A DNA stretch of 64,000 nucleotides from Promethearchaeota archaeon (GTDB lineage Archaea; Asgardarchaeota; Lokiarchaeia; Sigyniarchaeales; SOKP01): the NCBI GenBank assembly GCA_011364925.1, contig RDOA01000002.1, positions 64,001 to 128,000 of the forward strand, in the 5' to 3' direction. Made by a program: the position numbers and the translations under genes. Below are positions 6,197-28,587 of this stretch, piece after piece. The notes below the pieces were generated by a model that was given only the letters and a program-made list of their open reading frames with translations, ran no database searches and was not told where the DNA came from. How positions within the stretch are numbered: the stretch's first letter is position 1; every line of letters starts with the position of its first letter.

Positions 6197-6904
6197 TTAT
6201 TCTTCTATTGGGTGAACTTTAAGCGAATCAATAATATTAATTATATCTTCAGCAAGTTCGTACCGCTCATCGCGATATTTTTCACGATTTAATCGTTTTT
6301 CAACCTTAAGCGGGGTACCAATTTTAACTCTGATTCCCGTTGTGTTAAACATGCCAAGAACCCTCGCTTTTTCGGTGTAGATCGCTAAAGGAATTATCGG
6401 TGCCATTCCTGCAACTGCGAATTTAATAATTCCCGCCATGGCTTTTACTTGAACTTCTGGCGTTAACTTGGATTCTGGCGTCATAGCCACAAGATCCCCT
6501 ACCTCGTTAAGATAATGAAACACCATATCAATTGGAACAGTATCATCTTTATCAAGAGTACTACGGAACATTCCTAAATTTTTCAAAACAGGTCCATATA
6601 TTTGATGTTTCATTAACTTGTGATGAACCATAAAATGGATTCTACGTCCGGTAACCTGGCTAATAATTGCCATGTCTCTTAGTGCGTTGTCGCTTATCGT
6701 AGTCAAAATGGCCTTACCCTTAACTGGCACATTTTCTCTGCCCTCTATCTTCAAGTCAGCGAAAGCTCCTAAGCCAAAACCTCCAATTCCTTTTGTAACT
6801 GCGTATAACACATCTTTCATTAAATCCGTACTGAAAATCTTATCCTTTCCTTTCGTTTCTTTTTCTTCTTTTACTTCTTTTTCTTCTGGTATTGTTTGAA
6901 CCAT
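6197..6904 (-). CDS. PlsC/LPLAT-fold acyltransferase-like protein with degenerate catalytic motifs
   Basis: Scaffold KIEGRENVPVKGKAIL, RRIHFM, APIIPLAI and RVKIGTPL. The HX4D motif is replaced by ISDNALRD and FPEG by TPES. Confidence 0.75.
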   Translation of the reverse strand: MVQTIPEEKEVKEEKETKGKDKIFSTDLMKDVLYAVTKGIGGFGLGAFADLKIEGRENVPVKGKAILTTISDNALRDMAIISQVTGRRIHFMVHHKLMKHQIYGPVLKNLGMFRSTLDKDDTVPIDMVFHYLNEVGDLVAMTPESKLTPEVQVKAMAGIIKFAVAGMAPIIPLAIYTEKARVLGMFNTTGIRVKIGTPLKVEKRLNREKYRDERYELAEDIINIIDSLKVHPIEE

Positions 6905-7132: not shown

Positions 7133-8158
7133 TTAAGTTAATTGATCCCATTTTCCGCATCGAGAGCCCCAACGGGCTATAATTTTATTACCAAATTCTG
7201 GCATTTTTACTTGAACAATCTCACAATTATTCGGACAGTCGCCACAATTGAAAGCAGAGGTAGTAAATTCAATCTCTGCTACTTCAAGACCTCTAAACAC
7301 TGTCTCGTGTTCGCGTTCTAAATAATAGTCTCTAACTAAAATAGCCATACCAAGTGCTCCCATAAGAACGTTATATTTAGGGACTATAACTTTACACCCT
7401 AAGTGCCTCTCAAAAGCTTCTATAATTCCCTTATTGTAGGACACCCCTCCTTGAAAGACGATTGGTTCTTCGAGGTCTTTACCTTTACCAACGTTGTTCA
7501 TATAATTGCGAACGAGAGAATCGCACAGTCCAGCAATTATATCCGCTTTAGAATACCCCGCGTTTTGCTTGTGAATCATATCTGATTCAGCAAATACAGT
7601 ACACCTACCAGCTATACTTACCGGGTTCTTTGATTTTATAGCATAATCTCCAAACTCTTCAATAGGAATCCCAAGCCTCGCCGCTTGGTGGTCAAGGAAC
7701 GAACCTGTTCCAGCAGCGCAAACAGAGTTCATTGCGAAATCTATAATTATGCCATCTCTCAAGAGTATAATTTTAGAATCCTGACCTCCGATCTCTAATA
7801 TGGTTCTTACATCGGGATACATTGTTTGAGCGGCAACAGCGTGAGCAATTATCTCGGTTTTTGCGAGATCTGCTCCTACAATGGCTTTAGTTAAATATCT
7901 TGCTGAACCAGTCGTCCCACAGCAACGAATAGCATATTCGGGTAAATTCTCACTCTCTTCTATTTTATCGCGTAATTGTGCCATTCCTGCTTTTGCTGAA
8001 TCGATAGGAGAACCTCTATTCCGCAAAAATACACTGGTTAGTATATTTCCGTCAGTATCCATAAGAACGAATTTACAACTTACGCTACCTATGTCGATTC
8101 CAAGGAACGCATCCTTCTTATCTTCTTCTTTCATTACTTTTTCAGATACATCTTCCAT
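7133..8158 (-). CDS. Acyl-CoA dehydratase/reductase activase (HgdC/BcrAD/BadFG ASKHA ATPase, [4Fe-4S])
   Basis: GIDIGSVS, TTGSAR, EIGGQDSK, MNSVCAAGTGSFLD, RCTVFAESD, FQGGV, and C-terminal CGDCPNNC...GSRC. Confidence 0.92.
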   Translation of the reverse strand: MEDVSEKVMKEEDKKDAFLGIDIGSVSCKFVLMDTDGNILTSVFLRNRGSPIDSAKAGMAQLRDKIEESENLPEYAIRCCGTTGSARYLTKAIVGADLAKTEIIAHAVAAQTMYPDVRTILEIGGQDSKIILLRDGIIIDFAMNSVCAAGTGSFLDHQAARLGIPIEEFGDYAIKSKNPVSIAGRCTVFAESDMIHKQNAGYSKADIIAGLCDSLVRNYMNNVGKGKDLEEPIVFQGGVSYNKGIIEAFERHLGCKVIVPKYNVLMGALGMAILVRDYYLEREHETVFRGLEVAEIEFTTSAFNCGDCPNNCEIVQVKMPEFGNKIIARWGSRCGKWDQLT

Positions 8159-12419: not shown

Positions 12420-13604
12420 TTATTCGGTAATAATCTTAACGCACTCGTTATAGAAAGAGTCGCCGTAGTAAGGATAAATTTTCCGATTCCCATTTGCTTG
12501 GAATTCTTTGTTTTTTTCTATTTCCTTTTTCCTCCTACCATGCATAAGGTCTGCGAACGCCTCTAATCGCGTGCGGAAACCTTCCATACCTGATTGTTCA
12601 TCGAAGGAGAAATAAATTATTGGGAGATCGTAGATTTTCTTGAGTTTATTGGTTATAATCGTGCGAGCTACGACCTCAGGCATACATAAAAAGGGATACT
12701 CATGGACGAAACCATCAAATCCAGCCAGCGCCTTGTCGATATACTCCCCAAGCACCCACCTCGCCTCTCCACCGCAGTCTAACGGTAAATATGGACGCGA
12801 AAGATGCTCCAACCATTTTCTGTGATAATTTAGATGAAATTTGTGGACAACCCAATCATACAAGCTTAGAGATTGGTGAATTTCGATTCCCATCTCACCT
12901 AGCTTTCTTCTAATGTCAAGGTTAACGTAAGGTTCCAAGCTTATATGAATCTCGCCCGATATCCCTACTTTTAACGGAGTTCGAGTTTTATCGATATCCA
13001 GACCATTAAAATCTTGTTTAATAACATTTTTAAATTTCCTTAACTCGGGGAGCGTATTAGCCTCGTCGAGCTTTGTTAGCAGACCATTTACAATGTCTGT
13101 AGTGTCTCCTTGATTTCGCTCGTACGCTCGGAATAGCCCCTCTGCCGTCTGGATGTCGTTGAGTAATTTAGCCTTCTTTAGGAAAAATATGATGGCTTTC
13201 ACAAACTTCGAATAAACGAACAAATCACTCCGACCACTTATTTCTTGAAGCGTTTTAACCCAATGAAACTCAAGTAAATCGGCCTGATCCAAGGGGACTA
13301 CCGTAATATTCTTGTATCCCATATCCTTTAGAATTCTCTCCTGCACAGAAGCATAAAATCCGAACCTACAAGGTCCACAGTCGATCGCCATGACTAATGT
13401 ATCTGCTCCCTTCTCGATGGCATTGACAAAATCCCCTATTGTCGCCTTGAATGGAAAACAAACGAACTCTGGAGATTGCTTAACGCCGATTTTGATTGCC
13501 TCACGATTTGTTGGATCAGGAACGACCACATCTAAATCAAGGCTTGTAAAAAGTGTTTTAAAGGCAACCCAGTTTGGGCCCATATTAGGGAAGGAGATTA
13601 ACAT
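12420..13604 (-). CDS. PlsR-like / 2-hydroxyacyl-CoA dehydratase-related reductase subunit
   Basis: SFPNMG, SPEFVCFPFK, CGPCRFG, GEIH, PFLCMPE and FDEQSGMEGFRTRLEAFAD. Confidence 0.85.
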   Translation of the reverse strand: MLISFPNMGPNWVAFKTLFTSLDLDVVVPDPTNREAIKIGVKQSPEFVCFPFKATIGDFVNAIEKGADTLVMAIDCGPCRFGFYASVQERILKDMGYKNITVVPLDQADLLEFHWVKTLQEISGRSDLFVYSKFVKAIIFFLKKAKLLNDIQTAEGLFRAYERNQGDTTDIVNGLLTKLDEANTLPELRKFKNVIKQDFNGLDIDKTRTPLKVGISGEIHISLEPYVNLDIRRKLGEMGIEIHQSLSLYDWVVHKFHLNYHRKWLEHLSRPYLPLDCGGEARWVLGEYIDKALAGFDGFVHEYPFLCMPEVVARTIITNKLKKIYDLPIIYFSFDEQSGMEGFRTRLEAFADLMHGRRKKEIEKNKEFQANGNRKIYPYYGDSFYNECVKIITE

Positions 13605-13716
13605 CTTAAATCTAAGAAATTTTACCTAAGTCAAGTATTTGATCAAAACATGGTTTAAAATAAAAATTTACCCCTTATAAACAAAATATTAATCATGTGT
13701 TATTTTTAATAAAAAA
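13588..13716. repeat. Imperfect direct repeat A (promoter, 5'UTR and first codons of gene 12420-13604)
   Basis: Shares gggaaggaRattaacat, caagtatttgatcaaa, taaaataaaaatttaccccttataaacaaa and ttttaataaaaa with 18614-18756. Confidence 0.85.
13656..13682 (-). promoter_or_regulatory. Conserved 27-bp promoter element, copy 2
   Basis: Minus strand reads GTTTATAAGGGGTAAATTTTTATTTTA, ~50 nt upstream of the ATG at 13604. Confidence 0.75.
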
Positions 13717-13779
13717 TGGGAGCAATAATAATAAGATAGGATGCAAAAATTAATATTCCAGATAGTTCCAAAACTCGAA

Positions 13780-15105
13780 TCAAGATACCAGATTTTTCCA
13801 TATCGAATTTCTTGAAAAGAACTCAAGTCCGTTCTTAACGGCGAATCCTACATCTAATTTCTTTGATGGATTCAGCATAGTTAAAACCTTTGACATTGGT
13901 GTTTCAATACTAGAAACAAAATAATCAAAATTAGATTTCGGCTTAAAATATATACTTTTTATTTCATCCGGGATCACATACTTGACATCTTTAAACAAGG
14001 GATTAGCATTCTTGTTGCCGACCATTAAATCATGAAATGCTTCGATTCTTGTTCTAAGTCCTTCAAAACCAGAACTTCCATCAAGACTAATATGAATTTG
14101 GGGCATGTAAAACTTGTCCATGTTTTTCTCAGCCTCTAGCATTCCCATGAGGGATATTTCAGGCATGCAAGTGAAGGGAAAAATGTGGACATAGCCGTCG
14201 AACCCTTTTTCTTGACACTCAAGATAACTCCCCATGTTCCAGATCATCTCCCCACCAACATCCATTGGGACATAATTTTTTGCCCTTTTTTCAAGTCGTC
14301 TTCTTCGTTGGCTGGCGTCAAGTTTGTACATAACCCAATCAAAGACATCATACTGCTTGTGAACCTCGATACCCATGACGCCTAATTCTCCCATCAGATC
14401 ATAATTAACCCATTTCTCCAACATGACTTGGATTTCCCCAGTATAACAAACCCTCAAAGGTTCCATTTCCTTGTCAATAGGAATCTTGCGAAAGTGTTCA
14501 TCTATCGTTCTATCAAAATTAGATAATTTCATCAAATTGTATTCGTTATCAAGTAAATTCATCAAAGTATGAACTACTTTGGTAGTCATTGCTTTGGTTT
14601 TTTCCCGACATCTAACAAGTCCTTCAATATGGCTGATTCTTTCAACATAGTATGCTTTGATTAAGAACAAGAGTGTGTTTCTTAAAATTTTATAGTCATC
14701 AATTTTTCTTCCTGTTCTTTTTTCTAAATCATGAAACATCCTTAGCCATTCAAGATTTCGGAAATCATCTTGATTCAGATAAAACATTCTAACATCATTG
14801 AATCCCATGTTTTTCAAGATCCTTTTCTGGACAACAGCATAAATTCCTGCTCGACAAGGACCGTGATCAACAATCATCGCAAAATCTTTGACGTCATAAT
14901 TACGATACAGGTTTATCATTTCACCAAGAATGACTTTAAATGGAAAACAAACGAATTCAGGAGAAACTTTGACTCCTTCACTAACGATGTCAGTGTTTAC
15001 TAAAGGTGGTTCAACAACTTCAATACCAGGAAGATCATAGAATAAACCTTTGAAAAAAATATAGCTCCAACCCATTCGTGAAAATGCAATTCTGACATTT
15101 ACCAT
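13780..15105 (-). CDS. PlsR-like reductase subunit (second paralog)
   Basis: SPEFVCFPFK, HGPCRAG, GEIQ, PFTCMPE and GLRTRIEAFHD. Start overlaps the stop of the upstream activase. Confidence 0.85.
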   Translation of the reverse strand: MVNVRIAFSRMGWSYIFFKGLFYDLPGIEVVEPPLVNTDIVSEGVKVSPEFVCFPFKVILGEMINLYRNYDVKDFAMIVDHGPCRAGIYAVVQKRILKNMGFNDVRMFYLNQDDFRNLEWLRMFHDLEKRTGRKIDDYKILRNTLLFLIKAYYVERISHIEGLVRCREKTKAMTTKVVHTLMNLLDNEYNLMKLSNFDRTIDEHFRKIPIDKEMEPLRVCYTGEIQVMLEKWVNYDLMGELGVMGIEVHKQYDVFDWVMYKLDASQRRRRLEKRAKNYVPMDVGGEMIWNMGSYLECQEKGFDGYVHIFPFTCMPEISLMGMLEAEKNMDKFYMPQIHISLDGSSGFEGLRTRIEAFHDLMVGNKNANPLFKDVKYVIPDEIKSIYFKPKSNFDYFVSSIETPMSKVLTMLNPSKKLDVGFAVKNGLEFFSRNSIWKNLVS

Positions 15106-16130
15106 TTACCGCACCTACTGTTCCATCGTGCAAATATCCTATCATCCTTTTCTTTTCCAGTTACCTTACTTTTATCTTCTTCTCTGACAATGTATTTAAC
15201 CGTACATCTATTCGCACAATCAGGACAGACAAATGAACCTGGAGCCAAGTTCATTTCACTGACTTTTAGGCCATGAAAAGAAGATAGCTGTCCATTTACA
15301 TGTTCCTTTGCCAAAATGGCTGAACCAAATGCTCCCATCACATAATAGTTTTCATGAATAATGACTTCATGCCCCAATTCTTCTTCAAAAGCATTTTTTA
15401 TTCCGGAATTTGCTGCAACTCCTCCTTGGAATACGAAGGGAGGACTCAGTTTTTTACCCTTGCACACATTATTCAAGTAGTTTCTAACAAGAGCTTTACA
15501 TAATCCCTTGATAATTGCTTCTTTAGAATATCCTTCTTGTTGTTTACTGATCATATCAGATTCGGCAAAAACTGTGCATCGTCCTGCAATTGAAACCTCC
15601 TCTTCTGCCCGAGAAGCATAATCCCCAAATTCTTCAATTGGAACCTTGATCCGAATTGCTTGGTGATCTAGAAAAGAACCAGTTCCGGCAGCACAAACAC
15701 TGTTCATGTTAAAATCTGTTACGATGCCATTTTTCATCAATATAACTTTGCTGTCCTGTCCTCCGATTTCAAGAATTGTTCTCACGTCAGGGGTATAAGT
15801 TGAAGCTCCAATTGCGTGAGCAATTATTTCAGGTTTTGCTATATCTGCACCGATTAAAGCTTTTATTAAATACCTAGCAGAACCTGTTGTCCCAACACCA
15901 TAAATATTTTTTTCGATGTGATCGGGAAGGACTTCTTCCATGTATTTTAGATTTTCTTGTGTAGAAACAATGGGAGAACCATCATTTCTAGTCCAGGTTG
16001 CATACAATAATTCATTACTCTCATTAATTATTGCACATTTCGTGGAGACACTTCCGACATCGATTCCTAGATATAACTTGTCTTCCACATCATCTGGAAG
16101 AATATTCTTGATAAATTCTGGTTCATTCAT
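15099..16130 (-). CDS. Acyl-CoA dehydratase/reductase activase (second paralog)
   Basis: GIDVGSVST, EIGGQDSK, CAAGTGSFLD, RCTVFAESD and CPDCANRC...SRC. ATGA overlap with the upstream gene. Confidence 0.92.
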   Translation of the reverse strand: MNEPEFIKNILPDDVEDKLYLGIDVGSVSTKCAIINESNELLYATWTRNDGSPIVSTQENLKYMEEVLPDHIEKNIYGVGTTGSARYLIKALIGADIAKPEIIAHAIGASTYTPDVRTILEIGGQDSKVILMKNGIVTDFNMNSVCAAGTGSFLDHQAIRIKVPIEEFGDYASRAEEEVSIAGRCTVFAESDMISKQQEGYSKEAIIKGLCKALVRNYLNNVCKGKKLSPPFVFQGGVAANSGIKNAFEEELGHEVIIHENYYVMGAFGSAILAKEHVNGQLSSFHGLKVSEMNLAPGSFVCPDCANRCTVKYIVREEDKSKVTGKEKDDRIFARWNSRCGKW

Positions 16131-18568
16131 TTGTATTTCTTCCTCCTTATCATTTCTATAAAAGATTCTATTCTTGTGGTTATTTGGGATTCTCCAGTGT
16201 GTTCATCTAATGTAAGATCAATAAAAGGTTTATTTTTCATGTCAAAATCCTGCATTACCAATTCTTGAATTAAAGAATCAGGACCACATGCAAAAGAAAT
16301 TAAGAAAATGCCTCCATCAATCTCTTCATTATGGATAACATAATCAGATAATTGCATCAATTCATCTTCATTATCCCAGAAATTGGTTAGATTATCATCA
16401 ATTTCAACTCTTCTTGAGAAGATTTCCTTTGGAGCATTTTCAACAGTTACAACATCAACAAAATTGGCTTTGAGTATATCCATTAATCCATGATTAATAA
16501 TTGGTTCATAAGTGTTGTATGGATGACCAAGAACCATTAATGTAAGTGGATAATTTTCATAATCTTTGTTAAGTTTAGGTCGAAATCTTTTCTTAAACTT
16601 ATAATTAGGATATTTATCAAAAGGATACATTTTGTAAAGTGCATCAATGACAAGAATTCCATCCTCAGTCAACTTATGGAATTCTTCAAGTTTTTTATAT
16701 CCGTTCTCATACGCAAGTTTTGATTCTTCTTTAGATTTGCCTAATGTTTTTCCAAAATCTATTGCTGATTTCATCATTGTATGTTCCCTGGCATTAAAAG
16801 TCCATTCAATAACGGGAACATTAGAAACTGTCGAGTGCTGAGTGACATCTGGAAGGAGCAGGAATTTTGGACAATAATAATGATCCTTACTTTTACTAAC
16901 GAGTCTTGGAACAAATATAAAATCTAGATCGGGGTGATTCGTCGATAAATAATTCACATGACCGTAATGAATCTTGACTGGAATGCATAAATCGGTTGCA
17001 GACTGATTAGATCCGTTGGTAAGAATTTCTTTGTTCGTTTCTGGACTCACAATAACTTCGCAACCAAGACTTGTAAGCATTCCTTCCCATAATGGAAAAT
17101 ACTTGTAGAAATACAGGGAACGTGGTATACCTACCTTCAGGCTTTTCGTCTTTTCAGGTTTTTCAGTCTTTTCAGTTTTTTCGTTCTTTTTCTTATAATT
17201 CGTCTTTTCGTACAGGTTTCGAAATAGGTTCTTAGGATCCGTTCGTTCTTTCACATTATCGTATAATTCCTTGTTATATATCTTCCAGAACAAGTCTTCC
17301 TCGTAGAAATTGTGAGTTATTAGAGTTTTCATTCCCCCGAGCTCATAAACCTTTTCTTCAAGCGCTTTATAGAAGTTAAATCCCTTTCTTTTTTGCTCGA
17401 ACCCGTAGATGGCAAAATCTATGAATAATTCATCCTCGATGGGAGCGAACATGTCTTGATTAAGCCACGGGTAGAACTTGTACCCATCCAGCTTGTCTTT
17501 TTGCATGCGGTAAGGGACGATCCAAACCGGGAAGTAATTATCAAATACATCCAGGTACCAATTAAAAAATTCTTCCGCGTGAGTGAATGGTATGAAGACA
17601 TCAACAATTACGTCCGGTTCTCCACCCTTCTTAGTTAAAAATGGCAATCGTTCGCTGATGTTAAGAATATTTGTTGATCCAAGTATATAGGGTCCTACTA
17701 ACCACCGGACTACTTTATTCTCAAAAATTCCTCCAGCAACATTCCGTATCGACCAGTGACAATCTGCATCATACCTGAAAAAATAATCTATGGTGGAGAG
17801 GAAATCTCGCTTTTTTTCCATCGCACTTTTGTAATAAATATCGTAAAAATATTGACTCTTGTAAGGAGCTTCCTCCTCATCAACGAAGCTGGCAACACAG
17901 AGTACGTTCATATTCTTGGAGAAGATAAGCCCGTCCATCATTTCAATATCCTGCTTTTCGTAGTGTTGCATGATAGCTTCCATGTATTCACTAAAAGTAT
18001 TGTAACGGATGTAATCGATGCGAACGCACTTTTTTGCTGGAACGAGCTTAAACTTTAGGAGTGTGATGATTGCAATCGTGCCAAAACTCCCATGCAGCAT
18101 CTCGAATATATCATGGTTATCGCTTTTCGTGCATAACATTATGTCGCCTGTTCCTGTCACGATTTCTATTTCTTCACAGGAATCGAAAAATCCCCCATAC
18201 TTGAAAGACATGGATTCAACAGAACATCCTGCTACTGCCCCGCCTATCGTGATTCCCTTGAGCTCGGAAACCGTTTGCGGTACAAGACCATACTTTAAGG
18301 TTTCTGTTGCAAGTTTAACAAAAGTAACCCCTCCTTCTGCAATACATGTCCTAGTATCCGTGTTTATCTCAATAATGTCAGTAAGTGACTTTACATCAAT
18401 CGGCTTGTCACTATAGATTGGGTTATCTGGTTGTGGAGCCATGTGGGAAACATTCGCCTTTTTTAGAGAAAAATATTCTCCTGGCTTCGCGTTGTCGTAC
18501 GCGTTTCTAACCATTTCAGAGATCGCTTCTACTTTTCTTTTATGTATTGCTAGTTTTTCTTCGCTCAT
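16127..18568 (-). CDS. Fusion: DHCR24/TmsA-like FAD oxidoreductase (VAO/PCMH fold) plus DUF2229 activase-related subunit
   Basis: N-half: HKRKVEAI, ELKGITIGGAVAGCSVESMSFKYG, LHGSFGT, YFFRYD, DPKNLFRNLYEK. C-half: KVGIPRSL, LCIPVKIHYGH, YCPKF, FACGPDS, DEHTGE. Likely start is ATG 18568; the ORF track extends to TTG 18640. Confidence 0.85.
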   Translation of the reverse strand: MSEEKLAIHKRKVEAISEMVRNAYDNAKPGEYFSLKKANVSHMAPQPDNPIYSDKPIDVKSLTDIIEINTDTRTCIAEGGVTFVKLATETLKYGLVPQTVSELKGITIGGAVAGCSVESMSFKYGGFFDSCEEIEIVTGTGDIMLCTKSDNHDIFEMLHGSFGTIAIITLLKFKLVPAKKCVRIDYIRYNTFSEYMEAIMQHYEKQDIEMMDGLIFSKNMNVLCVASFVDEEEAPYKSQYFYDIYYKSAMEKKRDFLSTIDYFFRYDADCHWSIRNVAGGIFENKVVRWLVGPYILGSTNILNISERLPFLTKKGGEPDVIVDVFIPFTHAEEFFNWYLDVFDNYFPVWIVPYRMQKDKLDGYKFYPWLNQDMFAPIEDELFIDFAIYGFEQKRKGFNFYKALEEKVYELGGMKTLITHNFYEEDLFWKIYNKELYDNVKERTDPKNLFRNLYEKTNYKKKNEKTEKTEKPEKTKSLKVGIPRSLYFYKYFPLWEGMLTSLGCEVIVSPETNKEILTNGSNQSATDLCIPVKIHYGHVNYLSTNHPDLDFIFVPRLVSKSKDHYYCPKFLLLPDVTQHSTVSNVPVIEWTFNAREHTMMKSAIDFGKTLGKSKEESKLAYENGYKKLEEFHKLTEDGILVIDALYKMYPFDKYPNYKFKKRFRPKLNKDYENYPLTLMVLGHPYNTYEPIINHGLMDILKANFVDVVTVENAPKEIFSRRVEIDDNLTNFWDNEDELMQLSDYVIHNEEIDGGIFLISFACGPDSLIQELVMQDFDMKNKPFIDLTLDEHTGESQITTRIESFIEMIRRKKYK
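17141..17195. repeat. Imperfect 9-nt tandem repeat encoding the interdomain linker (NEKTEKTEKPEKTK)
   Basis: Repeating ttttcag(t/g)(c/t) units at the FAD-domain/DUF2229 junction. Confidence 0.7.
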
Positions 18569-18630
18569 GTCATACACAGGCTTGGGATTATTGCACGAAA
18601 CGATCCTTGCTTTGGGAAGGAAATTAACAT
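18565..18630 (-). other. 21-codon uORF/relic MLISFPKQGSFRAIIPSLCMT* derived from the start of gene 12420-13604
   Basis: First six codons encode MLISFP, as in the 13604 gene. Its TGA (18567-18565) overlaps ATG 18568 (ATGA). Confidence 0.65.
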
Positions 18631-18756
18631 TATTTTTCAAAGAAGTTTTACTTAGGCAAGTATTTGATCAAATCTATGAAATCAAATAACTCACTCTAAA
18701 ATAAAAATTTACCCCTTATAAACAAATTGTCAATTGTATGATACTTTTAATAAAAA
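18614..18756. repeat. Imperfect direct repeat B (copy of 13588-13716), containing promoter element copy 3 at 18697-18723
   Basis: Same blocks as repeat A, with a ~15-nt insertion. Confidence 0.85.
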
Positions 18757-18973
18757 TTTCAATAATATATATTAATTTTCACAGATCGATTGACACTATT
18801 ATATTTGTATCTCCCGTCATATTGAGTTCTTCTAACATATATATAGCTCCTCGCTTCAGTCAAAAACTTTATTCCTTTCAGTATCGCTAAACGATACTAT
18901 ATACTAATAAACAACAGATCAGAAAGACTAAAATTAGAAAAGATTACAATTTCAATGCGAACATGGGATTATA

Positions 18974-20383
18974 TTACAACAAGTTATCTGACTTCTTCAT
19001 TAGTTCATTCTTCTTTTTACGCAGTCTTTTAGCCTGGACTGCGATAGTTTCAAGAAGTCTTATTTGGTTAGAGGCTAACCATGGGCCTTCACAATCCACG
19101 GCAGCGTATGGAACATCACTCTTATTGGCCAAAGGTCTTATGATTGCTTGAGAATTCATAGCAGGTTGGCAATTAAATGTTCCAAGGTTTATTAAGCCAT
19201 CGTAAATGTTTTCCTTAAGAGAATACAAAAACCTACCAACAATTTGTGGTGTTTCAGTCATACTGTTTGAGGATACATATTTATTACCTTCTTCTAGGAG
19301 TTTATCAATTTCGATATAGGAATCGAACAATAATCCTGATCTACTCATTATTCTTCTGTACATCTTACATTGAGTATCAATAAAATTTATCATACTCTTG
19401 GTTCTTTTCGCTCTTACTGCCTCTTTTTGTTCTTTTTCGTTTAATTCAGAAAAATTAATTAAGGCCTCATCGAACTGATCTTTTGGGGTGAGAAGTCCTT
19501 TACTAAACCCAAACCTTATTGTATTTTCGGACAAAAGTAAAGTCATCCCTTCTGAAACATCAGCAACCTTTGTTATAATTCCTTTCTGAAGGAAAAATTC
19601 TTCAATTGGATAATGATCAAACATTAAGTTCAATCCCCCAAAGATTAAAATTTTAGTAGTCTCTTCGACTTTAGCTTTTAAAGGGATTTTCGCAACTTCT
19701 TTTGCCCACCTTACTAAACCAGTTTTTATGGTTTTTTCCCCCATTCTCACGCTTTCAATGAAGTTGGTTGTAATTTCTTCGAAAGTGTTCAAAGCAGAGT
19801 ATTCATCCTCAGCCGTACATCGTAGGGCGTTCCGCGCTTCAATTATATACTGTCCGATTATAAAATTGAGCTTTTCTTGCGCAATAAAGTCTTTATTCAA
19901 TCCTAGATAATTATTATAATAATTAGGTATCTGGTAGAATAACACATTTTTCAGATTCAGTCGTTTTGAAAAGTTTTTCCATATAACTGGCCATGCACCA
20001 TTCTGACACGGGCCATCTTGATCTATGGGAGTAATATAAATAGTGATCTCGTTTTCAGATCTATTCTCATGAATATCTTTCAATATCTCACCAGCAATAG
20101 CAACACACGCAAGACATTCTCTTCCAGAACAGATCTTCTTACCGTATTGTAGAGTGGAGGTGTTAGTTTCTTTGCTGATACGGACATTCTTATTGTGTGA
20201 AGCGTACAAATCTTTAACAAGACGTATCCCATAAGAATTTCTTGGTTCTGGCAAAACATAGACAATTCTTGGATCACTAAAGTCAACGCTATTTCCATCG
20301 CTGTCTATAATAGAACCATTATGAACTTCAGCCGATTTTACTTTTTGAATATCTTCGATTTTAAATTTCTTTATATCAGACAT
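18974..20383 (-). CDS. PlsR-like reductase/dehydratase subunit (partner of the 977-aa protein)
   Basis: CSGRECLAC, DGPCQNG and DGLINLGTFNCQP. Directly downstream of the double-activase gene. Confidence 0.8.
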   Translation of the reverse strand: MSDIKKFKIEDIQKVKSAEVHNGSIIDSDGNSVDFSDPRIVYVLPEPRNSYGIRLVKDLYASHNKNVRISKETNTSTLQYGKKICSGRECLACVAIAGEILKDIHENRSENEITIYITPIDQDGPCQNGAWPVIWKNFSKRLNLKNVLFYQIPNYYNNYLGLNKDFIAQEKLNFIIGQYIIEARNALRCTAEDEYSALNTFEEITTNFIESVRMGEKTIKTGLVRWAKEVAKIPLKAKVEETTKILIFGGLNLMFDHYPIEEFFLQKGIITKVADVSEGMTLLLSENTIRFGFSKGLLTPKDQFDEALINFSELNEKEQKEAVRAKRTKSMINFIDTQCKMYRRIMSRSGLLFDSYIEIDKLLEEGNKYVSSNSMTETPQIVGRFLYSLKENIYDGLINLGTFNCQPAMNSQAIIRPLANKSDVPYAAVDCEGPWLASNQIRLLETIAVQAKRLRKKKNELMKKSDNLL

Positions 20384-20400
20384 TTTTCTATTAAAATTCT

Positions 20401-23334
20401 CTAGCTTGTTAATTCAAATTTTTTACGTCGTTCTTCAATTATATCAAGAAATGCTTCTACCCGTGTTTCAAAACCAGCATGTGCAGTATGTGAATCAATC
20501 TCAAGATAACAAAATGTAGATCCTGCAAGCTCCTGTCGAAATTGATGATACATTGTACCGTCAGGACCACAAGAAAAACAGGAAACCATACAAATATAGA
20601 CATTTGGATTTTTTTTTGCGAAATTTACTGCATTATCGATCTGTTGAGTAAAAAGCCATGCATTTCGTTCATGATTAGCCGTTAGTAGTGGTAAAATATC
20701 AACTGGAATAGCATGATATCCTCTACTTGCAATTTTCTGAGGAAGTGCAATATTAATATCATTAGGATAGATTACATAAGGTCTTCCAGCAATTATTACA
20801 CTTGGTTCCTTGATTAATTTATCTAGTAGTTTTTCTCCTAACTCATGATACTTCCGAATAAACTTTTTATAATGAGAAAAAGCCCGTTTACCTGCTTCTA
20901 TTCCTACACTCCTTTCTAATCCGAGTTGAATCGCAACTTGCCCCAATTCTTGTAATGTTGTTTGTAAATATCGTTTCGATGTGCTTATATGAGGTGCTAA
21001 AATTCTATCTTGCTCGTTCTCAAACGCAGCTCGAACAACATCAGATATAACAGCTGTTGAGCTGCAGGTATACCCGTGAAGATATCCATCTGTAGGTTCG
21101 AATTCAAAAGTTCGAGGTAAAAATATATATTCGATTCCTTGGTTGATAAGATCTAGTACTGCTCCATGCGTTAATTCACCAGGATAACATATCGATGCCA
21201 ATGTTTTAGTATTTCCTAATGTATTTGATTTTGATAACACTACATCGAATCCCAATTCATTAATAAATTTGGTATAAAAGGGAAAAAGTGAATGTGTAGT
21301 TAAAACCATTGGTAAACCAATAGATCCTAGTGAATTTTTAAGAGCAGTTGGTCCAAATTCATCGTAAATCATTGAGTTCCTTATCTCTACTAGATTTTTA
21401 CCTAGTTTTATCTTTTTGCCTCTCTGACGCAATAGCTTGTATTTTGAACATAATCCACCAAACGGATAGGTATTGCCTCTTATGGAAATGTTTTGGATCT
21501 CGCAATTGTTTTCACATGCATTACACCTAAATGTGCTCTTTACTTTCATCTCTCCATGTAGAAGATCCCTTAAATTAAAATTATGTTCAGAGATTTCTTC
21601 GTTTCTTAAAAGATCGAGAGCCATTAGAGCAGAACCTATACTTCCCATAAGCTCGGGATGGGCTGGAACAATAATTTTTCGTTGAACTCGATCAGCAATG
21701 GCTAATGCAACAGCTTTATTTAAAGCAAGGCCTCCCAGAAATAAGATATTTTCACCAATTTGGCGGGATCCAATGATCCTCGAAATATAATTATCAGCAA
21801 TTGAATAAACAAGACCTGCAACAACATCCTCTCGTTTAGCGCCTTGCTGTAGTGCGTTTCTTAAATCAGTATTAATAAAAGCTGCACATCTTTCCCCAAA
21901 TGAAATTGGCTGAGAGCTGGTTAGAGCAATTTCACTGATTTTTTCGACTGGAATCCCCATATCTACTGACGCAGATTCTTCTAAAAAACTCCCAGTTCCG
22001 GCAGAACACCCTTCATTCATAGCATAATCAATAGGAACACCTTTTAAAAAGGAAATAAATTTTGAATCTTGCCCACCAATTTCAAAGACAGTATCGATTC
22101 CAAGTAATTCTTCCGTAGCGGATCGTGCGTGAGCTAATATTTCGTTAAAACTTCGACAATTATCCAAATACACTGAAACCATTTCTCTCGCTGACCCTGT
22201 TACACCGCATTGAATTATATTAATCGTAGTATTGCCAATTTGTTCTAAAAGTATCTCTAGACACTGTTTTGTTGATACAATGGGATTCCCTAAAGTTCTT
22301 AAATACGCACTAGCTCCAATGGAACTATCTTTTACATTGAATAGAACTGCTTTTGTAGTAGTTGATCCGGCGTCTAAACCTAATATATAGGATCCATTTT
22401 TAACAATTCTCATTTTAGTAGCTGGTTCTACTCGATAATCTAATAAATTTTCAATACTGGTAAGGGTTTTAGTAGTTTCAAAGACCGACTCCTTTTGTTC
22501 AATCAAATTTTCACTCCTTTGAGTATCATTTTGAATCTCAGACGCATATAGAGCCGCTCCAAAGACTTCAAGAAATGGGCTTTCTGATAAAACTTCAATA
22601 TCAGAGGATGGAAGAAAGTTTTGCATACTTTCGATAAAATACTTATTTAAAGAAACCCCACCCGTGATAACTATTAAATCAGTTGGCCATTGAGCACTCT
22701 CAATCATTTCACTCACTTTTCTTGCTAAATCGTGTATTAATGTTTTTGCGATGTCTTCTTTTTTACATTCTCCTTTGTTAAGTTTATGCGTCGCGTCAGA
22801 TTTACAATGCACCGAACATCGAGTTGCTAATTGAACTAACTGCCCCTTTGAACTTTCCTCAATTCCCTGCTTTACAGAGAGACCCATCCTTTCAAGTTGC
22901 TGGACGATAAATTCTCCTGTTCCAGCGGCACATTTAGAGGTTGAAATAATATTCTTAATAACGCCATTTTTCATTGGGTATATACTAAATGTTTCGCCTC
23001 CTAAAGAAAGAAGTAAATCGGGTTTTAAATTATAATATTGCAGTGCTTTTTCAAAGCATTCTACTTCAGAATAATAGGGAAAATCGAAAAATTGTTTTGC
23101 AACATTTCCTGTCATAACGATATTTGAATCACCATTGGTATTATGACGTTTAAAAATCTCTCTAATTTTTTCTCTAGGGAAACCCTCATGACGCAAAACT
23201 TCATTTATTATCGTTCCGTCTTGGGAAATTCGAACCCATTTTACAGAAACCGCCCCTATCTCTAATCCCTCATAATACTTATACTTGTACGAGACTTCTT
23301 TTGTGAAACTTTCGTTTGACATTAGGATCATCAA
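20401..23334 (-). CDS. PlsA-like multidomain protein: two ASKHA activase domains plus DUF2229
   Basis: Domain 1: GLEIGAVSVK, KCAAGTG, RCSVHCKSD. Domain 2: GLDAGSTTTK, EIGGQDSK, NEGCSAGTGSFL, RCAAF. Then CNACENNC, and DUF2229 motifs ICYPGE, FSCGPD, EIDSHT. Confidence 0.9.
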   Translation of the reverse strand: MMILMSNESFTKEVSYKYKYYEGLEIGAVSVKWVRISQDGTIINEVLRHEGFPREKIREIFKRHNTNGDSNIVMTGNVAKQFFDFPYYSEVECFEKALQYYNLKPDLLLSLGGETFSIYPMKNGVIKNIISTSKCAAGTGEFIVQQLERMGLSVKQGIEESSKGQLVQLATRCSVHCKSDATHKLNKGECKKEDIAKTLIHDLARKVSEMIESAQWPTDLIVITGGVSLNKYFIESMQNFLPSSDIEVLSESPFLEVFGAALYASEIQNDTQRSENLIEQKESVFETTKTLTSIENLLDYRVEPATKMRIVKNGSYILGLDAGSTTTKAVLFNVKDSSIGASAYLRTLGNPIVSTKQCLEILLEQIGNTTINIIQCGVTGSAREMVSVYLDNCRSFNEILAHARSATEELLGIDTVFEIGGQDSKFISFLKGVPIDYAMNEGCSAGTGSFLEESASVDMGIPVEKISEIALTSSQPISFGERCAAFINTDLRNALQQGAKREDVVAGLVYSIADNYISRIIGSRQIGENILFLGGLALNKAVALAIADRVQRKIIVPAHPELMGSIGSALMALDLLRNEEISEHNFNLRDLLHGEMKVKSTFRCNACENNCEIQNISIRGNTYPFGGLCSKYKLLRQRGKKIKLGKNLVEIRNSMIYDEFGPTALKNSLGSIGLPMVLTTHSLFPFYTKFINELGFDVVLSKSNTLGNTKTLASICYPGELTHGAVLDLINQGIEYIFLPRTFEFEPTDGYLHGYTCSSTAVISDVVRAAFENEQDRILAPHISTSKRYLQTTLQELGQVAIQLGLERSVGIEAGKRAFSHYKKFIRKYHELGEKLLDKLIKEPSVIIAGRPYVIYPNDINIALPQKIASRGYHAIPVDILPLLTANHERNAWLFTQQIDNAVNFAKKNPNVYICMVSCFSCGPDGTMYHQFRQELAGSTFCYLEIDSHTAHAGFETRVEAFLDIIEERRKKFELTS

Positions 23335-23715: not shown

Positions 23716-24792
23716 CTATACTTCTTGTTTTGAGCGAATAATTAAATGTTGCTTTTGGTTTAAGTCCTTTCTTCTTTTCTTTCTTCTAATCATTTCAACA
23801 AAACTTTCTACTCTTGTCAATAATCCAGCTTCTCCCGAATGTTCATCCATCGTAATCTCCAAGAAAGGAAGTCCAACAACTTTCATATCGCGCATGATTA
23901 ATTCTGAAATTAGACTATCTGGACCACAAGCAAAACTTATTAAGAAAATAACTCCATCAATTTCGTCTCGACCTTCAGTGAGGAAATATCGGATGCTTTG
24001 CATGATTTCTTCTTCATGGCGCCAGTAATTTCGAAGTTTCCCACCTTTTGGGTTGACGATAACAGGTTTCTTAAAAATGAATTCTGGTAAGTTTTCGATA
24101 GTGATAACTTCTACTCCTTGATCTTGTAACTTTTTCTGAAAATCAAGGTTGATGAAAGTATCGAATATGTTGTAAGCATGTCCTAATAGTAAAAACTTTA
24201 TATCACCAGTGAGTTTTCTCTTAGGTAAGGTAAAAGAGCGATTCCTTTCAGCTAACCGTAGTGCATAATTGACCGAAGCGCCGTTTCTCAAAAATTCGTG
24301 ATACTCGTCAAAATACCTTTGGGCTTCTCTATACGCGTTTAAAGATTGATTTTGAGTTTTTCCTAACTGACTACCGAGTTCAATTGCGGCTGCTGATATA
24401 GGAAACTCTTTAACATTTACCTCAAAGTTCAAAATTTTTGGAACTCCCGGTAAAATTTTAATTACATCGGGTAATGATAAGAATTTTGGGCAAAAATACG
24501 AATCTTTTGTTTCAGAAACATATCTCGGTACAAAAATATAGTCTAAATCAGGGTGTTCTTCTATTAGTTTGATAACTTGTCCGTAGTAAATCTTAACGGG
24601 AATGCATAACTCTCCAAATCCATGAGTTACGCCTTCCTCAACTATTTTTTTGTTTGTAAGGGGACTTATAACGATTTCGGCATCTAGCTCTTCTAAGATC
24701 TTTTTCCAAAACGGAAAATACCTGTAAAAATGAAGCGCTCTCGGTATCCCCACTTTGAATTTTTTCTTAGTGGACGGTTGTGGAACTTCCAT
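23716..24792 (-). CDS. DUF2229 CoA-enzyme-activase-related subunit
   Basis: KVGIPRAL, ELCIPVKIYYG, FCPKFLSLPD, LLGHAYN, FACGPDS and MDEHSGEAGLLTRVESFVE. Confidence 0.88.
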   Translation of the reverse strand: MEVPQPSTKKKFKVGIPRALHFYRYFPFWKKILEELDAEIVISPLTNKKIVEEGVTHGFGELCIPVKIYYGQVIKLIEEHPDLDYIFVPRYVSETKDSYFCPKFLSLPDVIKILPGVPKILNFEVNVKEFPISAAAIELGSQLGKTQNQSLNAYREAQRYFDEYHEFLRNGASVNYALRLAERNRSFTLPKRKLTGDIKFLLLGHAYNIFDTFINLDFQKKLQDQGVEVITIENLPEFIFKKPVIVNPKGGKLRNYWRHEEEIMQSIRYFLTEGRDEIDGVIFLISFACGPDSLISELIMRDMKVVGLPFLEITMDEHSGEAGLLTRVESFVEMIRRKKRRKDLNQKQHLIIRSKQEV

Positions 24793-24813: not shown

Positions 24814-26493
24814 CTATGCATCTGGGCTATCATAAAGCAATAAATCTTTAATTTGAGCCATCATATTGGCAGTTAGACGCTTTAATTCTTCGTAGTCCGG
24901 CATAGGTTTACCCCAATATTTTTTGTGCTCCATGAATAAAGGTCCTGCTTTTAAGATATGACCTGTGTAGAAATTCAACATTTTCGCGTGTTTGGGATAG
25001 ATGTCTTCCGTTCCCGTTATCCCGATCAGTACGATTGGAACTTGTTTTTCGATCGCTAAACGCATCGCTCCGGTGTGACCCTCCAATAGTTCTCCGCCAC
25101 CAGGATTAGTAGTTCCCTCAGGATAAACTACACATAATTCTCCTTTGTCCAATACACTTTTTGCGTAATTGAATGAATCTATATCGTGTTGACCGCGTTT
25201 AAGTGGGAAAGCGTGATGGTTTCTAATCCACGCGTTAACAAGCGGCGGTTTGAATAAGGTTTGTTTTGCCATCTGATATAAAACCCGTTTACTATGATAG
25301 ATTAAACTCGTTGCTAAGATAATTACATCCCATTCAGAATTGTGGTTAGTGCACACGACAGCAGCTCCTTCTTCGGGTATATATTTTTCGAAATCAATTA
25401 CTTTATAGGGCATCATCAGTTCACACCAATTGTGGACTAACCAACCCGAGAAGTTTTGGACAGTTCTCTGAAATTGATCTCGAACTCCAAAAACCTCCAA
25501 TGTCTTTAAAAACGAATACCATATATCGTCGAAAAGTTGTAATGTACCTATTCCAACATCTTTTAAATAACCCTTGAAGGAGAACGAATCTTTAGGTTTT
25601 TGGGCGTCTTCTGGAGAACCGATTGATAATTCCTCTTCTTTCTTTTGCTTTCTCGGATCTACAATAACGTAATCTCGCAAATCTAGTACTACTTGACGTA
25701 ATTCAGTGGTTAGTCTTTTTATTTCTTCGTATGATACTTTGTTAATATCGTATTTGTCGTAATATATTGGGTCTCCTACGCGCACTTTAACTTGAGTTGG
25801 CTTCATTACAAGTTTGCCTTTGGGTAACGCATTTCTCGATCCTATAACTGCCATAGGAACTATAGGTACTTTCGTCTCAATGGCTAGTCGAACCGCTCCT
25901 GTTTTAAATTCTCCGAGCTCCCAACCTGTCTCTTCTCGAGATCGTGTCCCTTCAGGGAAAATGCCAACCCACTCTCCATTACGTATAATCTCCTTAGCTG
26001 TCTCCCACCCTTGCTCAGGATTTTCTCGGTCTAATTTAAACGCTCCGAGATTAGTAAATAAGGTTCTTACTAAAGGAGTTTTGAAATTGTCCAACTTACT
26101 CATGTATCGGATTCGTCTGTGGCACGCAGCACCATAGAAGAACGGGTCTAAATGGCTTTCATGGTTTCCCACTAGGATGCCCGGACCATATTCAGGGAAC
26201 ATATTCCCTTGTGGGTATTCTGCTTTAAAATTCCACAAAAGACGAGCAAAAAACTTAATATAGATAAACGCAGCCCACCATTGGAGTTGTCCTTCAATAT
26301 CTTCAACGTCTAATCGTTTAATAGCTTTGCGGTAAAGGTCGTTTAAGGGATCAATAGGATTATACTTTAATACCTTATAAGTTGCGTTTTGATGTCGTTT
26401 TCCGAAGTCTAATTCTTCTTGTTCCTTTTCTTCAGTAGTTTTAACTAAACGCGTTTCTTCAGTAGTTTTAAATTCTTCTTCTTCTAGTACCAT
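24814..26493 (-). CDS. Tandem two-domain lysophospholipid/glycerol-phosphate acyltransferase (PlsC family)
   Basis: Two intact catalytic sets: NHESHLD with FPEGTRS, and NHNSEWD with YPEGTT. Confidence 0.92.
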   Translation of the reverse strand: MVLEEEEFKTTEETRLVKTTEEKEQEELDFGKRHQNATYKVLKYNPIDPLNDLYRKAIKRLDVEDIEGQLQWWAAFIYIKFFARLLWNFKAEYPQGNMFPEYGPGILVGNHESHLDPFFYGAACHRRIRYMSKLDNFKTPLVRTLFTNLGAFKLDRENPEQGWETAKEIIRNGEWVGIFPEGTRSREETGWELGEFKTGAVRLAIETKVPIVPMAVIGSRNALPKGKLVMKPTQVKVRVGDPIYYDKYDINKVSYEEIKRLTTELRQVVLDLRDYVIVDPRKQKKEEELSIGSPEDAQKPKDSFSFKGYLKDVGIGTLQLFDDIWYSFLKTLEVFGVRDQFQRTVQNFSGWLVHNWCELMMPYKVIDFEKYIPEEGAAVVCTNHNSEWDVIILATSLIYHSKRVLYQMAKQTLFKPPLVNAWIRNHHAFPLKRGQHDIDSFNYAKSVLDKGELCVVYPEGTTNPGGGELLEGHTGAMRLAIEKQVPIVLIGITGTEDIYPKHAKMLNFYTGHILKAGPLFMEHKKYWGKPMPDYEELKRLTANMMAQIKDLLLYDSPDA

Positions 26494-26506: not shown

Positions 26507-27289
26507 TTAGGATTTTATTTTTACACTATTTTTAGTGCTCGAATCGGATATATTCTTTTTTTCAATTAACTTTTTTAATTCCTCTAGTGAATCAATTAAT
26601 AAATCGGGTTCGAATTCTGCTAACATCTCTTTTTTACTAACACCGCTTGCGACTCCGATCGTCCAAACTCCAGCTTCTCTCCCAGCTTGGATATCTGAAG
26701 GCATATCCCCAATCATTACAAACTCTTTCAAATTACACGATTTGTAAGTCTCGAAAACGGGATTTAGAGCTGTTGGATCGGGTTTCAAATTAGGGAGAAG
26801 ATCAGCTCCAAAAACACCTTTAAAAACGCTTTTAACCTTGTTTTCTTCAAGATGAGGAATGATATTCTTAGTCTGATTATGTGATACGATAAAAAAGTCG
26901 TACGATTTCTTGTATTTACTAATGAAATCGGTTGCTTCGGGGTAAAAGGGTGCTTCTTTAGCTAATGTTAAGTATCGAGTAAATATTTTTACCGCTATTC
27001 TTAATTTTTTAAAGAATGTTAATGATTGGAGCGAAGTAATGTATTTAAACAATTCAAAAGATTCTAATATGATTTTAGGAAGTGGCGTTCCTTGGATTAT
27101 CTCCATTAAAGCTCCGATCTCTTGCATCGTAGTTTCAATATTGGTCTTAATCTGCTTCTCTTCGTAGACTTCTTCTATTGATTTCTGAAGTGATTCTCTT
27201 ATATCGAGGACAGTTCCGTCAAAATCGAAAATAATACCTCGAATTGTCCCATTTTGAAGCCGCTTTACTAATTGATTGTCAGAGATCAT
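26507..27289 (-). CDS. HAD-superfamily phosphatase
   Basis: FDFDGT, KPDP and MIGDMPSDIQAG. First gene of the HAD-PlsC-DUF2229 unit. Confidence 0.9.
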   Translation of the reverse strand: MISDNQLVKRLQNGTIRGIIFDFDGTVLDIRESLQKSIEEVYEEKQIKTNIETTMQEIGALMEIIQGTPLPKIILESFELFKYITSLQSLTFFKKLRIAVKIFTRYLTLAKEAPFYPEATDFISKYKKSYDFFIVSHNQTKNIIPHLEENKVKSVFKGVFGADLLPNLKPDPTALNPVFETYKSCNLKEFVMIGDMPSDIQAGREAGVWTIGVASGVSKKEMLAEFEPDLLIDSLEELKKLIEKKNISDSSTKNSVKIKS

Positions 27290-28044: not shown

Positions 28045-28587
28045 ATGAGTAGAACTTCTACTTCCGATTTTCAATTTAAGATTCCGATAATAGGGGATGG
28101 CGGTGTAGGTAAAACCACGTTAACTCATCGCTATCTTCACGGATTATTTAAAGAGAGCTACCATTTAACGATTGGAGTAGATTTTTTTCTCAAAAAGCTT
28201 GAAATAGATGGGAAAAAAGTCTCTTTACAAATTTGGGATTTTGCTGGTGAAGAAAAATTTAGATTTTTACTACCTGGAGTAATCAATGGGGCTAATGGGA
28301 CCATTTTCATGTTTGATATAACAAGGTACGGGTCATTTGAGAATTTACCCAACTGGTTGGATGTTTTTAATAAGGCTAATGAAAATCACAATCAAGCAGT
28401 TCCTGCCTTGTTAGTAGGTAGTAAAACTGATCTCGCAGGAATTAGGACAGTTCCACCTAAAGAAGCTAAAGAATTCGCCCGGGATAATAATTTTATCAGC
28501 TATATTGAATGTTCTTCTAAAAGTGGTGAAAATGTAGAAGAACTCTTTAAAACAATTACTAAAATTATGATGGAAAAGGTAAAATAA
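28045..28587 (+). CDS. Rab-like small GTPase
   Basis: GDGGVGKT, TIGVDF, WDFAGEE, GSKTD and ECSSK. No C-terminal prenylation motif. Confidence 0.92.
   Translation: MSRTSTSDFQFKIPIIGDGGVGKTTLTHRYLHGLFKESYHLTIGVDFFLKKLEIDGKKVSLQIWDFAGEEKFRFLLPGVINGANGTIFMFDITRYGSFENLPNWLDVFNKANENHNQAVPALLVGSKTDLAGIRTVPPKEAKEFARDNNFISYIECSSKSGENVEELFKTITKIMMEKVK

Follow-up and report, generated by a model that had tools for sequence, protein, structure and literature searches.

An FAD oxidoreductase fused to a plasmalogen synthase-type subunit in Promethearchaeia, a candidate vinyl-ether reductase

The 64,000-nucleotide stretch of DNA analysed here (the window; positions 64,001 to 128,000 of contig RDOA01000002.1 from a Promethearchaeota archaeon) includes a gene, located at 16127..18568 (-), that codes for a single 813-amino acid (aa) protein consisting of an FAD domain, a linker, and a DUF2229/HGD-D subunit that we refer to as the D domain. 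This fusion is a patchy, family-level trait and neither a feature of a single genome nor an assembly chimera. We tentatively propose, from sequence comparisons, that the FAD domain may be the first vinyl-ether (plasmenyl) reductase, and that together with the D domain, a second catalytic subunit (H441) and an activase (B343) it could provide an O2-independent two-step route from ester to alkyl ether. Such a route would have arisen independently by gene fusion in Asgard archaea and as an operon in Myxococcota, and would enable Promethearchaeia to make bacterial-type ether lipids beside the archaeal ones. The original prediction considered the fusion to be undescribed, and our search of the literature found no description of such an FAD/DUF2229 fusion or of a vinyl-ether reductase.

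[quoted passage not shown] The fusion and a gene pair from Myxococcota described below constitute a concrete, clonable candidate for this missing enzyme. The candidate is encoded by Asgard archaea, with PlsC-type acyltransferases next to it and, in this genome, also a Ger-type gene. It therefore bears on the 'lipid divide', the question of whether bacterial-type or mixed membranes are within the reach of relatives of the eukaryotic ancestor. If the proposal is true it would give a first function to the very large family of 'FAD-binding oxidoreductases', and also to PlsA-like homologues that are split and lack activase domains, for which the role has been stated to be unclear (PMC13274423).

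Structure, distribution and conservation of the fusion

A single open frame spans nucleotides 16127..18640 (-) and its product in the ORF listing was named P0001. The start of the fusion gene is likely the ATG at 18568, residue 25 of P0001. The resulting protein has 813 aa, compared to 803-822 aa in the orthologues where the whole gene is present on a contig; this start agrees with the coordinates 16127-18568 proposed initially. The protein includes the FAD domain (aa 1-456, 17201..18568 (-)), which has the VAO fold of the BfaA/TmpA/DHCR24-like subfamily as judged by Pfam (PF01565), an AlphaFold2 (AF2) model and Foldseek; an interdomain linker rich in K, E and T whose length varies among species, as seen in an alignment of 11 fused orthologues (aa 457-476, 17141..17200 (-)); and the D domain (aa 477-813, 16130..17140 (-)), which Pfam, alignment, and an AF2 model compared by Foldseek define as DUF2229 with an HGD-D C-terminus and three invariant Cys. 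The Pfam matches, in P0001 numbering, are FAD_binding_4 (PF01565) at 81-170 (E 1.4e-13), DUF2229 (PF09989) at 502-734 (E 2.6e-45), and HGD-D, with its C-terminus only, at 754-831. One uninterrupted gene therefore carries both the FAD oxidoreductase and the DUF2229 matches, as had been claimed. The overlaps of stop and start codons that had been noticed toward the activase and reductase subunit genes are also present: the TGA stop of the fusion and the ATG start of the activase gene share 4 nucleotides (ATGA, 16127-16130), and the latter ends within the sequence ATGGTAA (15099-15105), where the 441-aa HGD-like gene begins.

The fused, stop-free frame was found in 41 of the 121 genomes sampled from the same GTDB family (Promethearchaeia), representing 8 of its 13 genera, and its open frames are ~795-846 aa long wherever the length of the contig suffices. 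The fusion was also found in ~19 separately deposited metagenome-assembled genomes (MAGs), which are mostly labelled as Promethearchaeota or Promethearchaeia, and was not found in 16 genomes from three other families of the order. Since the same stop-free frame recurs in many independent assemblies, it is not an assembly artefact. In the alignment of 11 fused species all the indels in the linker are in frame, and the FAD and D halves are conserved to an equal degree (~0.9-0.98 column identity). The FAD domain of the fusion retains 71 of the 71 invariant columns of a 25-member family alignment. The presence of the fusion in 41 of 121 genomes, the 87-95% identity of its orthologues within the family and the in-frame linker indels indicate that it is real and under constraint.

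The module composed of the fusion, B343 and H441 (FAD:D-B343-H441) is 83-95% identical between species, while the flanking genes coding for a PlsC-type acyltransferase and a HAD-family hydrolase are 64-86% and 62-83% identical, respectively. The higher conservation of the module and its presence in about a third of the genomes could be due to strong constraint or to its lateral spread among the members of the family. The Asgard fusion operon also appears, at 90-92% identity, on contigs in bins assigned to Ignavibacteriales (L039) and Nitrosopumilaceae (L043), which are probably cases of mis-binning. Searches for longer proteins of the FAD family found no other fusion to a different enzyme; the proteins of ~890-916 aa in this family (P0137, P0146, P0148, P0151 and P0156) consist of the whole FAD domain in tandem duplicate.

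The FAD domain

The AF2 model of the FAD domain, generated with a 77-sequence alignment, had a pLDDT of 94.8. Its best Foldseek matches among solved structures were cytokinin oxidases and DprE1 (E ~1e-22 to 1e-18, TM-score 0.60-0.67), and no closer solved structure was found; the model also matched an Atlas cluster of 'FAD-binding oxidoreductases' with a TM-score of 0.91. The PF01565 match and the two-domain VAO fold place the domain in the VAO/PCMH superfamily, and the family to which it belongs is very large, with 3262 representative clusters at E <= 0.001. The nearest stand-alone relatives, 53-58% identical, come from Spirochaetota, metagenome contigs and the anaerobic protist Anaeramoeba. 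The Anaeramoeba protein (P0011, 57-58% identical) carries the source name 24-dehydrocholesterol reductase, and a Myxococcota Atlas cluster is named 'Delta(24)-sterol reductase'; these names, which are source-given or automatic only, agree with the kinship to Delta(24)-sterol reductase pointed out by the original prediction.

The Anaeramoeba flamelloides gene is a single-exon gene (L131:10001-11692, L132:10001-11692) whose product is the sister of the Asgard fused clade (SH-aLRT 99), and no Pls-type neighbors were seen beside it. This position suggests that the gene passed between an Asgard lineage and a eukaryote, in either direction.

References of the BfaA and TmpA types were selected by synteny and by their Cfa-like neighbors. 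The former was taken from a Tsukamurella locus with the published bfaAB gene order, namely YbaB, Rv3717-type amidase, SRPBCC, FAD oxidoreductase, SAM methyltransferase and DnaX (PMC5660069, Fig. 2), and the latter from a Variovorax locus with the methyltransferase-reductase order of the tmp operons; the methyltransferases next to both references are 34-36% identical to E. coli Cfa. The FAD domain showed 29% identity to the Tsukamurella BfaA (residues 20-460 in the 813-aa numbering against 14-465, E 6e-56) and 30% identity to the TmpA-type protein (E 3e-57) over the full length, including the cap domain. The label 'TmsA/BfaA-like' given before is thus right at the family level. On the other hand, BfaA and TmpA share 40-45% of their residues with the outgroup member P0165 and 29-30% with the fused FAD domain, and the branch that splits the fused-domain clade from the P0165 group has an SH-aLRT of 100, in a tree in which BfaA and TmpA were not included as rows. 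A Cfa-type gene was absent beside ~100 loci of this FAD clade, and a Cfa/BfaB-type partner was not found in the genome of the window, where the matches to PF02353 were merely partial and corresponded to generic methyltransferases. Because BfaA and TmpA are nearer to the outgroup and no Cfa-type gene accompanies the clade or occurs in the genome, the FAD domain is a member of a sister clade rather than an orthologue of either.

Other assignments of the FAD domain were rejected. A role as a BfaA (methylene-fatty-acyl reductase) was ruled out by the missing Cfa partner, an AGPS-like role because the match is confined to the FAD subdomain (residues ~80-230, E 5e-4 to 0.025), and a role as D-2-hydroxyacid dehydrogenase because the match is confined to the FAD-binding subdomain (E ~1e-10).

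The structural relatives also raise the question of the direction of the reaction. Most of the solved VAO-fold neighbors, such as cytokinin oxidase and DprE1, remove a hydride beside a heteroatom, and a dehydrogenation would be the microscopic reverse of the reduction that we propose; the D, H and B parts could then be Ger-like and make the alkyl ether, and the FAD domain would dehydrogenate it to the vinyl ether as an O2-independent counterpart of PEDS1/CarF. We consider this very unlikely in view of the fact that the closest functionally tested relative, BfaA, is an NADPH-using reductase (PMC7791843) and that the names of the near relatives point to the reductase DHCR24. Furthermore, no electron acceptor is evident in the operon, and the organism would be a strict anaerobe without an obvious high-potential acceptor.

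The D, H and B subunits

The genes that follow the fusion code for B343, a BcrAD_BadFG/HgdC-type ATP-dependent activase (15099..16130 (-)) with matches to PF01869 (E 5.5e-47) and TIGR00241 (E 1.8e-56), and for H441, the HGD-D-like second catalytic subunit of the module (13780..15105 (-)). Comparison of the fused D domain with D358, an unfused D subunit encoded in the same cluster, and with unfused D proteins of other families gave 42-46% identity, and comparison with the Ger-type D domain of set A, a split Ger/PlsA-type pair that is also part of the cluster, gave ~22%. Three Cys are invariant across the fused D domain, D358, set A and a Myxococcota Ger-type protein. A further three Cys are invariant across H441, the related subunit H394, the PlsR-like 469-aa protein of set A (R469) and the C-terminus of Ger, and both H441 and H394 align with R469 and the Ger C-terminus. 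The AF2 model of the D domain (pLDDT 78) matched the double-cubane cluster protein DCCP, the 2-hydroxyisocaproyl-CoA dehydratase HadBC, the benzoyl-CoA reductase subunits BzdNO, and MbdON (E 3.5e-8 to 6e-5, with TM-scores of merely 0.35-0.42).

The module therefore includes the co-encoded HgdC/BcrAD-type activase, the catalytic-subunit fold and the cluster Cys that characterize the benzoyl-CoA reductase/2-hydroxyacyl-CoA dehydratase (BCR/HAD) family, as well as the parts of PlsA/PlsR, i.e. DUF2229, an HGD-D-like partner and an activase. It does not have the architecture of Ger, with two activase domains plus DUF2229 (BBD), as its only activase domain is encoded by a separate gene; the BBD architecture is found in set A (P0006) and in the Myxococcota neighbor gene. 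The shared Cys triads and the matches of the D model to DCCP, HadBC and BzdNO identify the D/H/B module as a split and distant paralogue of PlsA/Ger, which thus belongs, in divergent form, to the same branch of BCR/HAD radical [4Fe-4S] enzymes. The partner half had been described as being of the plasmalogen synthase type, a description that fits a PlsA/Ger-type D domain in which the Cys triad is kept.

The resemblance of the D model to HadBC could also indicate a fermentative system similar to the 2-hydroxyacyl-CoA dehydratases, fed or drained by the FAD domain acting as a D-2-hydroxyacid dehydrogenase or an enoyl reductase, and in fact FAD_binding_4 includes GlcD and the D-lactate and D-2-hydroxyglutarate dehydrogenases, to which there are weak NCBIfam matches. 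Such a function is highly improbable: the GlcD-type matches cover the FAD-binding subdomain alone, compared to the full-length matches to BfaA/TmpA at E 1e-56; the D domain matches DUF2229 at E 2.6e-45 and HGD-D at its C-terminus alone; PlsC acyltransferases head the operon in the loci examined across the order; and there is no CoA-transferase in the cluster.

A different possibility is that the FAD domain acts as an electron-entry module, which would accept electrons, from NAD(P)H or some other source, and deliver them to the Fe-S clusters of the D/H subunits or the activase. Ester reduction of the PlsA/Ger type consumes electrons stoichiometrically from a donor that is not established, VAO-fold flavoproteins are able to pass electrons to Fe-S or electron transfer flavoprotein (ETF) partners, the PDB matches include LctD of the lactate dehydrogenase/ferredoxin complex 7qh2, and the adjacency to Ger genes described in the next section fits equally well. 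However, the whole domain, including the cap, is conserved with the alkene reductases BfaA and TmpA, which argues for a lipid substrate rather than for a bare diaphorase; the low-potential clusters of the BCR/HAD family, as is well established, are not readily reduced by NAD(P)H; and most D-H-B sets of the order, as well as set A, work without an FAD domain. An electron-entry function is thus improbable in our judgment.

Linkage of the FAD gene to Ger-type genes in Myxococcota

In a scan of species-representative genomes, 61 non-Asgard loci of the FAD gene were obtained, three of which have a full-length Ger/PlsA-type gene directly upstream and on the same strand. The same pairing is present in three more genomes of that order, for a total of six in a Myxococcota clade, with a gap between the Ger and FAD genes of 67-80 bp where it was measured. 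At one of these loci the Ger-type gene occupies L060:707-5164 and the FAD gene L060:5231-6607. The complete Myxococcota copy of the Ger/PlsA gene codes for 1485 aa with two BcrAD_BadFG domains and DUF2229. The six FAD proteins are 80-86% identical and form one clade that strongly supported branches separate from the Asgard clade. As a consequence of this separation, a physical link between the FAD family and PlsA/Ger-type enzymes must have arisen on at least two occasions, one being the fusion and the other an operon. The objection that the FAD gene might never neighbor Pls genes elsewhere is answered by these six genomes. At L086:4201-5619, in an MAG labelled Acidobacteriota, a PIN/DUF3368 toxin-antitoxin-like pair splits the Ger-type and FAD genes.

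DUF2229 co-occurs in 31 of 48 genomes with a stand-alone FAD homologue, and in all 23 of the 23 genomes of the Myxococcota order, where co-occurrence is uninformative. Clustering of the neighbors at 69 stand-alone FAD loci revealed no conserved functional neighbor beyond generic two-component regulators and the synteny of close kin, the top clusters being shadow ORFs over the FAD gene itself. Stand-alone members of the FAD clade are present in small or reduced genomes of Peregrinibacteria, Gracilibacteria, WWE3 and Nanoarchaeota (L057, L062, L065, L077, L078, L080 and L110), in which DUF2229 was not found; a stand-alone FAD gene in such gene sets hints at the remodelling of scavenged lipids.

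The abundance of the family where DUF2229 was not found, which includes the Candidate Phyla Radiation (CPR) and DPANN, and its occurrence mostly without a Pls/Ger neighbor, are in agreement with a function in which the FAD domain saturates some other C=C bond in this lipid pool, which could be that of an alkene (terminal or mid-chain), that of a methylene branch, or an isoprenoid double bond comparable to the Delta24 bond of sterols. The fusion to D would then serve for co-localisation at the membrane and co-expression and not for action on the product of D/H. The known relatives act on C=C bonds of chains and not on vinyl ethers (PMC5660069, PMC7791843), and GGGPS, for which the genome has a gene, implies isoprenoid ether lipids. 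We consider this possibility unlikely, since the maintenance of the fusion across 8 genera and the independent pairing with Ger in Myxococcota point to coupled chemistry, and no methylene-forming partner of the Cfa/BfaB type exists in the genome or beside the ~100 loci.

Proposed reaction

The protonation of a double bond followed by the addition of a hydride has been proposed for the reduction of isolated C=C bonds by both DHCR24 and BfaA. This behavior, and the acid lability of vinyl ethers, is the reason why we would expect protonation at C2' and hydride transfer to C1' if the substrate of the FAD domain is a vinyl ether. The idea of the original prediction, in which a vinyl ether is converted to an alkyl ether, is thus plausible and newly supported, if unproven. 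A possible scheme would begin with the neighboring PlsC-type acyltransferases, which would make an acyl-glycerolipid. B343 would then spend ATP and drive a low-potential electron into the D/H441 heterodimer, which would reduce the ester carbonyl and eliminate water and so generate, in the manner of PlsA/PlsR, a 1-alk-1'-enyl (vinyl) ether. With NAD(P)H as its reductant, like BfaA, the tethered FAD domain may protonate C2' and transfer the hydride to the oxocarbenium C1', and the product would be an acid-stable saturated alkyl ether. BfaA carries out an NADPH-dependent reduction of C=C bonds on phospholipid-bound chains (PMC7791843). For the FAD domain, what is reduced, which way the reaction runs and where the electrons come from are all inferred. 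We regard saturation by the FAD domain of the vinyl ether made by D/H441, with the scheme taken as a whole, as a serious possibility that is still far from assured.

Several observations weigh against the scheme. To our knowledge, cultured Promethearchaeia have so far shown isoprenoid lipids alone. In E. coli, Ger expressed by itself suffices to produce saturated 1-alkyl glycerol ethers (PMC13159169), which means that there is no general need for a further reductase. The D domain of the fusion module (set B), at just ~22% identity, is distant from the Ger-type D domain, and sequence cannot separate PlsA-like from Ger-like chemistry (PMC13274423). The pairing in Myxococcota, with its 80-86% identical proteins, is a single evolutionary event. 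Most of the stand-alone FAD copies have no Pls/Ger neighbor, and a DUF2229 gene was not found in 17 of the 48 genomes with a stand-alone homologue, CPR and DPANN among them; a co-occurrence in 31 of 48 is evidence against an obligate link between FAD and DUF2229. In view of these 17 genomes and of the many copies without such neighbors, the FAD family as a whole must, judging from its distribution, have other or broader substrates than the products of Ger.

Organization of the lipid cluster

In all five loci examined from the other families of the order the gene order is PlsC-type acyltransferase, D (~350 aa, DUF2229), H (~400-440 aa) and B activase. The corresponding ancestral set of the window includes D358 (23716..24792 (-)); H394 (12420..13604 (-)), which is 39% identical to H441; and the activase B341 (7133..8158 (-)), which is nearest to the activases of the other families. 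A HAD-family hydrolase gene (26507..27289 (-)) is located at the head of the cluster, followed by a gene for a tandem PlsC-family acyltransferase with two PF01553 domains (24814..26493 (-)). Downstream of B341 there is a gene for a third PlsC-family acyltransferase of 235 aa (6197..6904 (-)) that stretches the lipid locus to ~6.2-27.3 kb of the window.

In the focal family, FAD:D-B343-H441 forms a second module between D358 and H394-B341 (locus L023). A segment of ~150 bp upstream of H394, together with the first codons of the gene (MLISFP), is found duplicated upstream of the fusion gene (18611..18771 (-), identified by local alignment with 13585-13733). The duplicated segment includes a TATA-like TTTATAAGGGGTAAATTTTTATTTT element, and the mechanical ORF start, TTG 18640, traverses it. 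H394 N-terminal fragments are present upstream of the fusion gene in other species too, and this scar marks the insertion point of the fusion module. In this genome, a split Ger/PlsA-type pair of 977 and 469 aa is additionally inserted at the scar site. This pair is set A; its first part includes two activase domains and DUF2229 (20401..23334 (-)) and is 37-39% identical to Myxococcota Ger-like genes, and the second is the PlsR/Ger C-terminal-like subunit R469 (18974..20383 (-)). The location of the pair (18974-23334) between D358 and the fusion gene was seen in this genome only; several other species have D358 or an H394 fragment immediately upstream of the fusion gene, and two further genomes of the genus have a BBD gene on other contigs.

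Both GGGPS and PlsY are encoded in the genome, and a search of it revealed no clear ketoacyl synthase of type II. Lipid chemistry of the archaeal as well as of the acyl type is thus conceivable in this organism, with fatty acids possibly being scavenged.

Outside the lipid cluster, the window includes a Ras-family GTPase gene at 28045-28587, and the genomes of relatives include a Cpn60/TCP1-family chaperonin gene and Ras/Arf-type genes, all of which agrees with the assignment of the window to an Asgard archaeon. At 1462-4487 (-) adjoining genes code for an MttB-family methyltransferase, a homocysteine S-methyltransferase-like protein and a corrinoid-binding protein. The MttB gene codes for an uninterrupted 478-aa protein and has no in-frame TAG, yet there is an Rfam PYLIS_3 match within it at 1839-1936 (41.5 bits with a cut-off of 38).

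Comparison with known systems

The fused FAD domain belongs to the same VAO-fold subfamily as BfaA/TmsA and TmpA, with which it shares full-length homology (29-30%, E ~1e-56), and the substrate of BfaA is a C=C bond on a membrane-lipid chain that is reduced with NADPH (PMC7791843). In contrast to these proteins, the domain of the window lies in a separate, strongly supported clade, has no Cfa/BfaB partner, and is fused to DUF2229. The likeness to DHCR24/DIMINUTO rests on the database names of the nearest eukaryotic relative and the Myxococcota cluster. DHCR24 acts on an electron-rich C=C bond by protonation and hydride transfer, and the same chemistry would be expected for the FAD domain. Unlike DHCR24, the latter has no N-terminal membrane anchor, its N-terminus being a polar, charged helix according to the sequence and the model. 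The resemblance to AGPS, another VAO-fold flavoprotein of ether lipid synthesis, is a weak similarity restricted to the FAD-binding subdomain, and AGPS catalyzes an acyl/alkyl exchange on dihydroxyacetone phosphate (DHAP).

With PlsA/PlsR of Clostridium perfringens the module shares the activase (BcrAD_BadFG), DUF2229 and HGD-D-like parts, an anaerobic setting and a lipid operon context. It differs from it in being split over three genes, with a single activase domain and an extra FAD domain, and in the sequence of D, for which the ~22% identity to the Ger/PlsA-type D domain was obtained with set A as proxy and not with the C. perfringens sequence. Ger, known from Thermotoga maritima and Desulfatibacillum alkenivorans and with homologues already reported in Lokiarchaeota (PMC13159169), has the same proposed end product, a saturated alkyl ether derived from an ester lipid, and its BBD architecture is that of set A and of the Myxococcota neighbor genes; while Ger carries out the conversion in one polypeptide without a flavoprotein, here the last step would fall to the fused FAD domain. 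Finally, the plasmanylethanolamine desaturase PEDS1/TMEM189/CarF connects the same two lipids, the alkyl ether and the vinyl ether, although it does so in the opposite direction, as an O2-dependent di-iron membrane desaturase of an unrelated fold.

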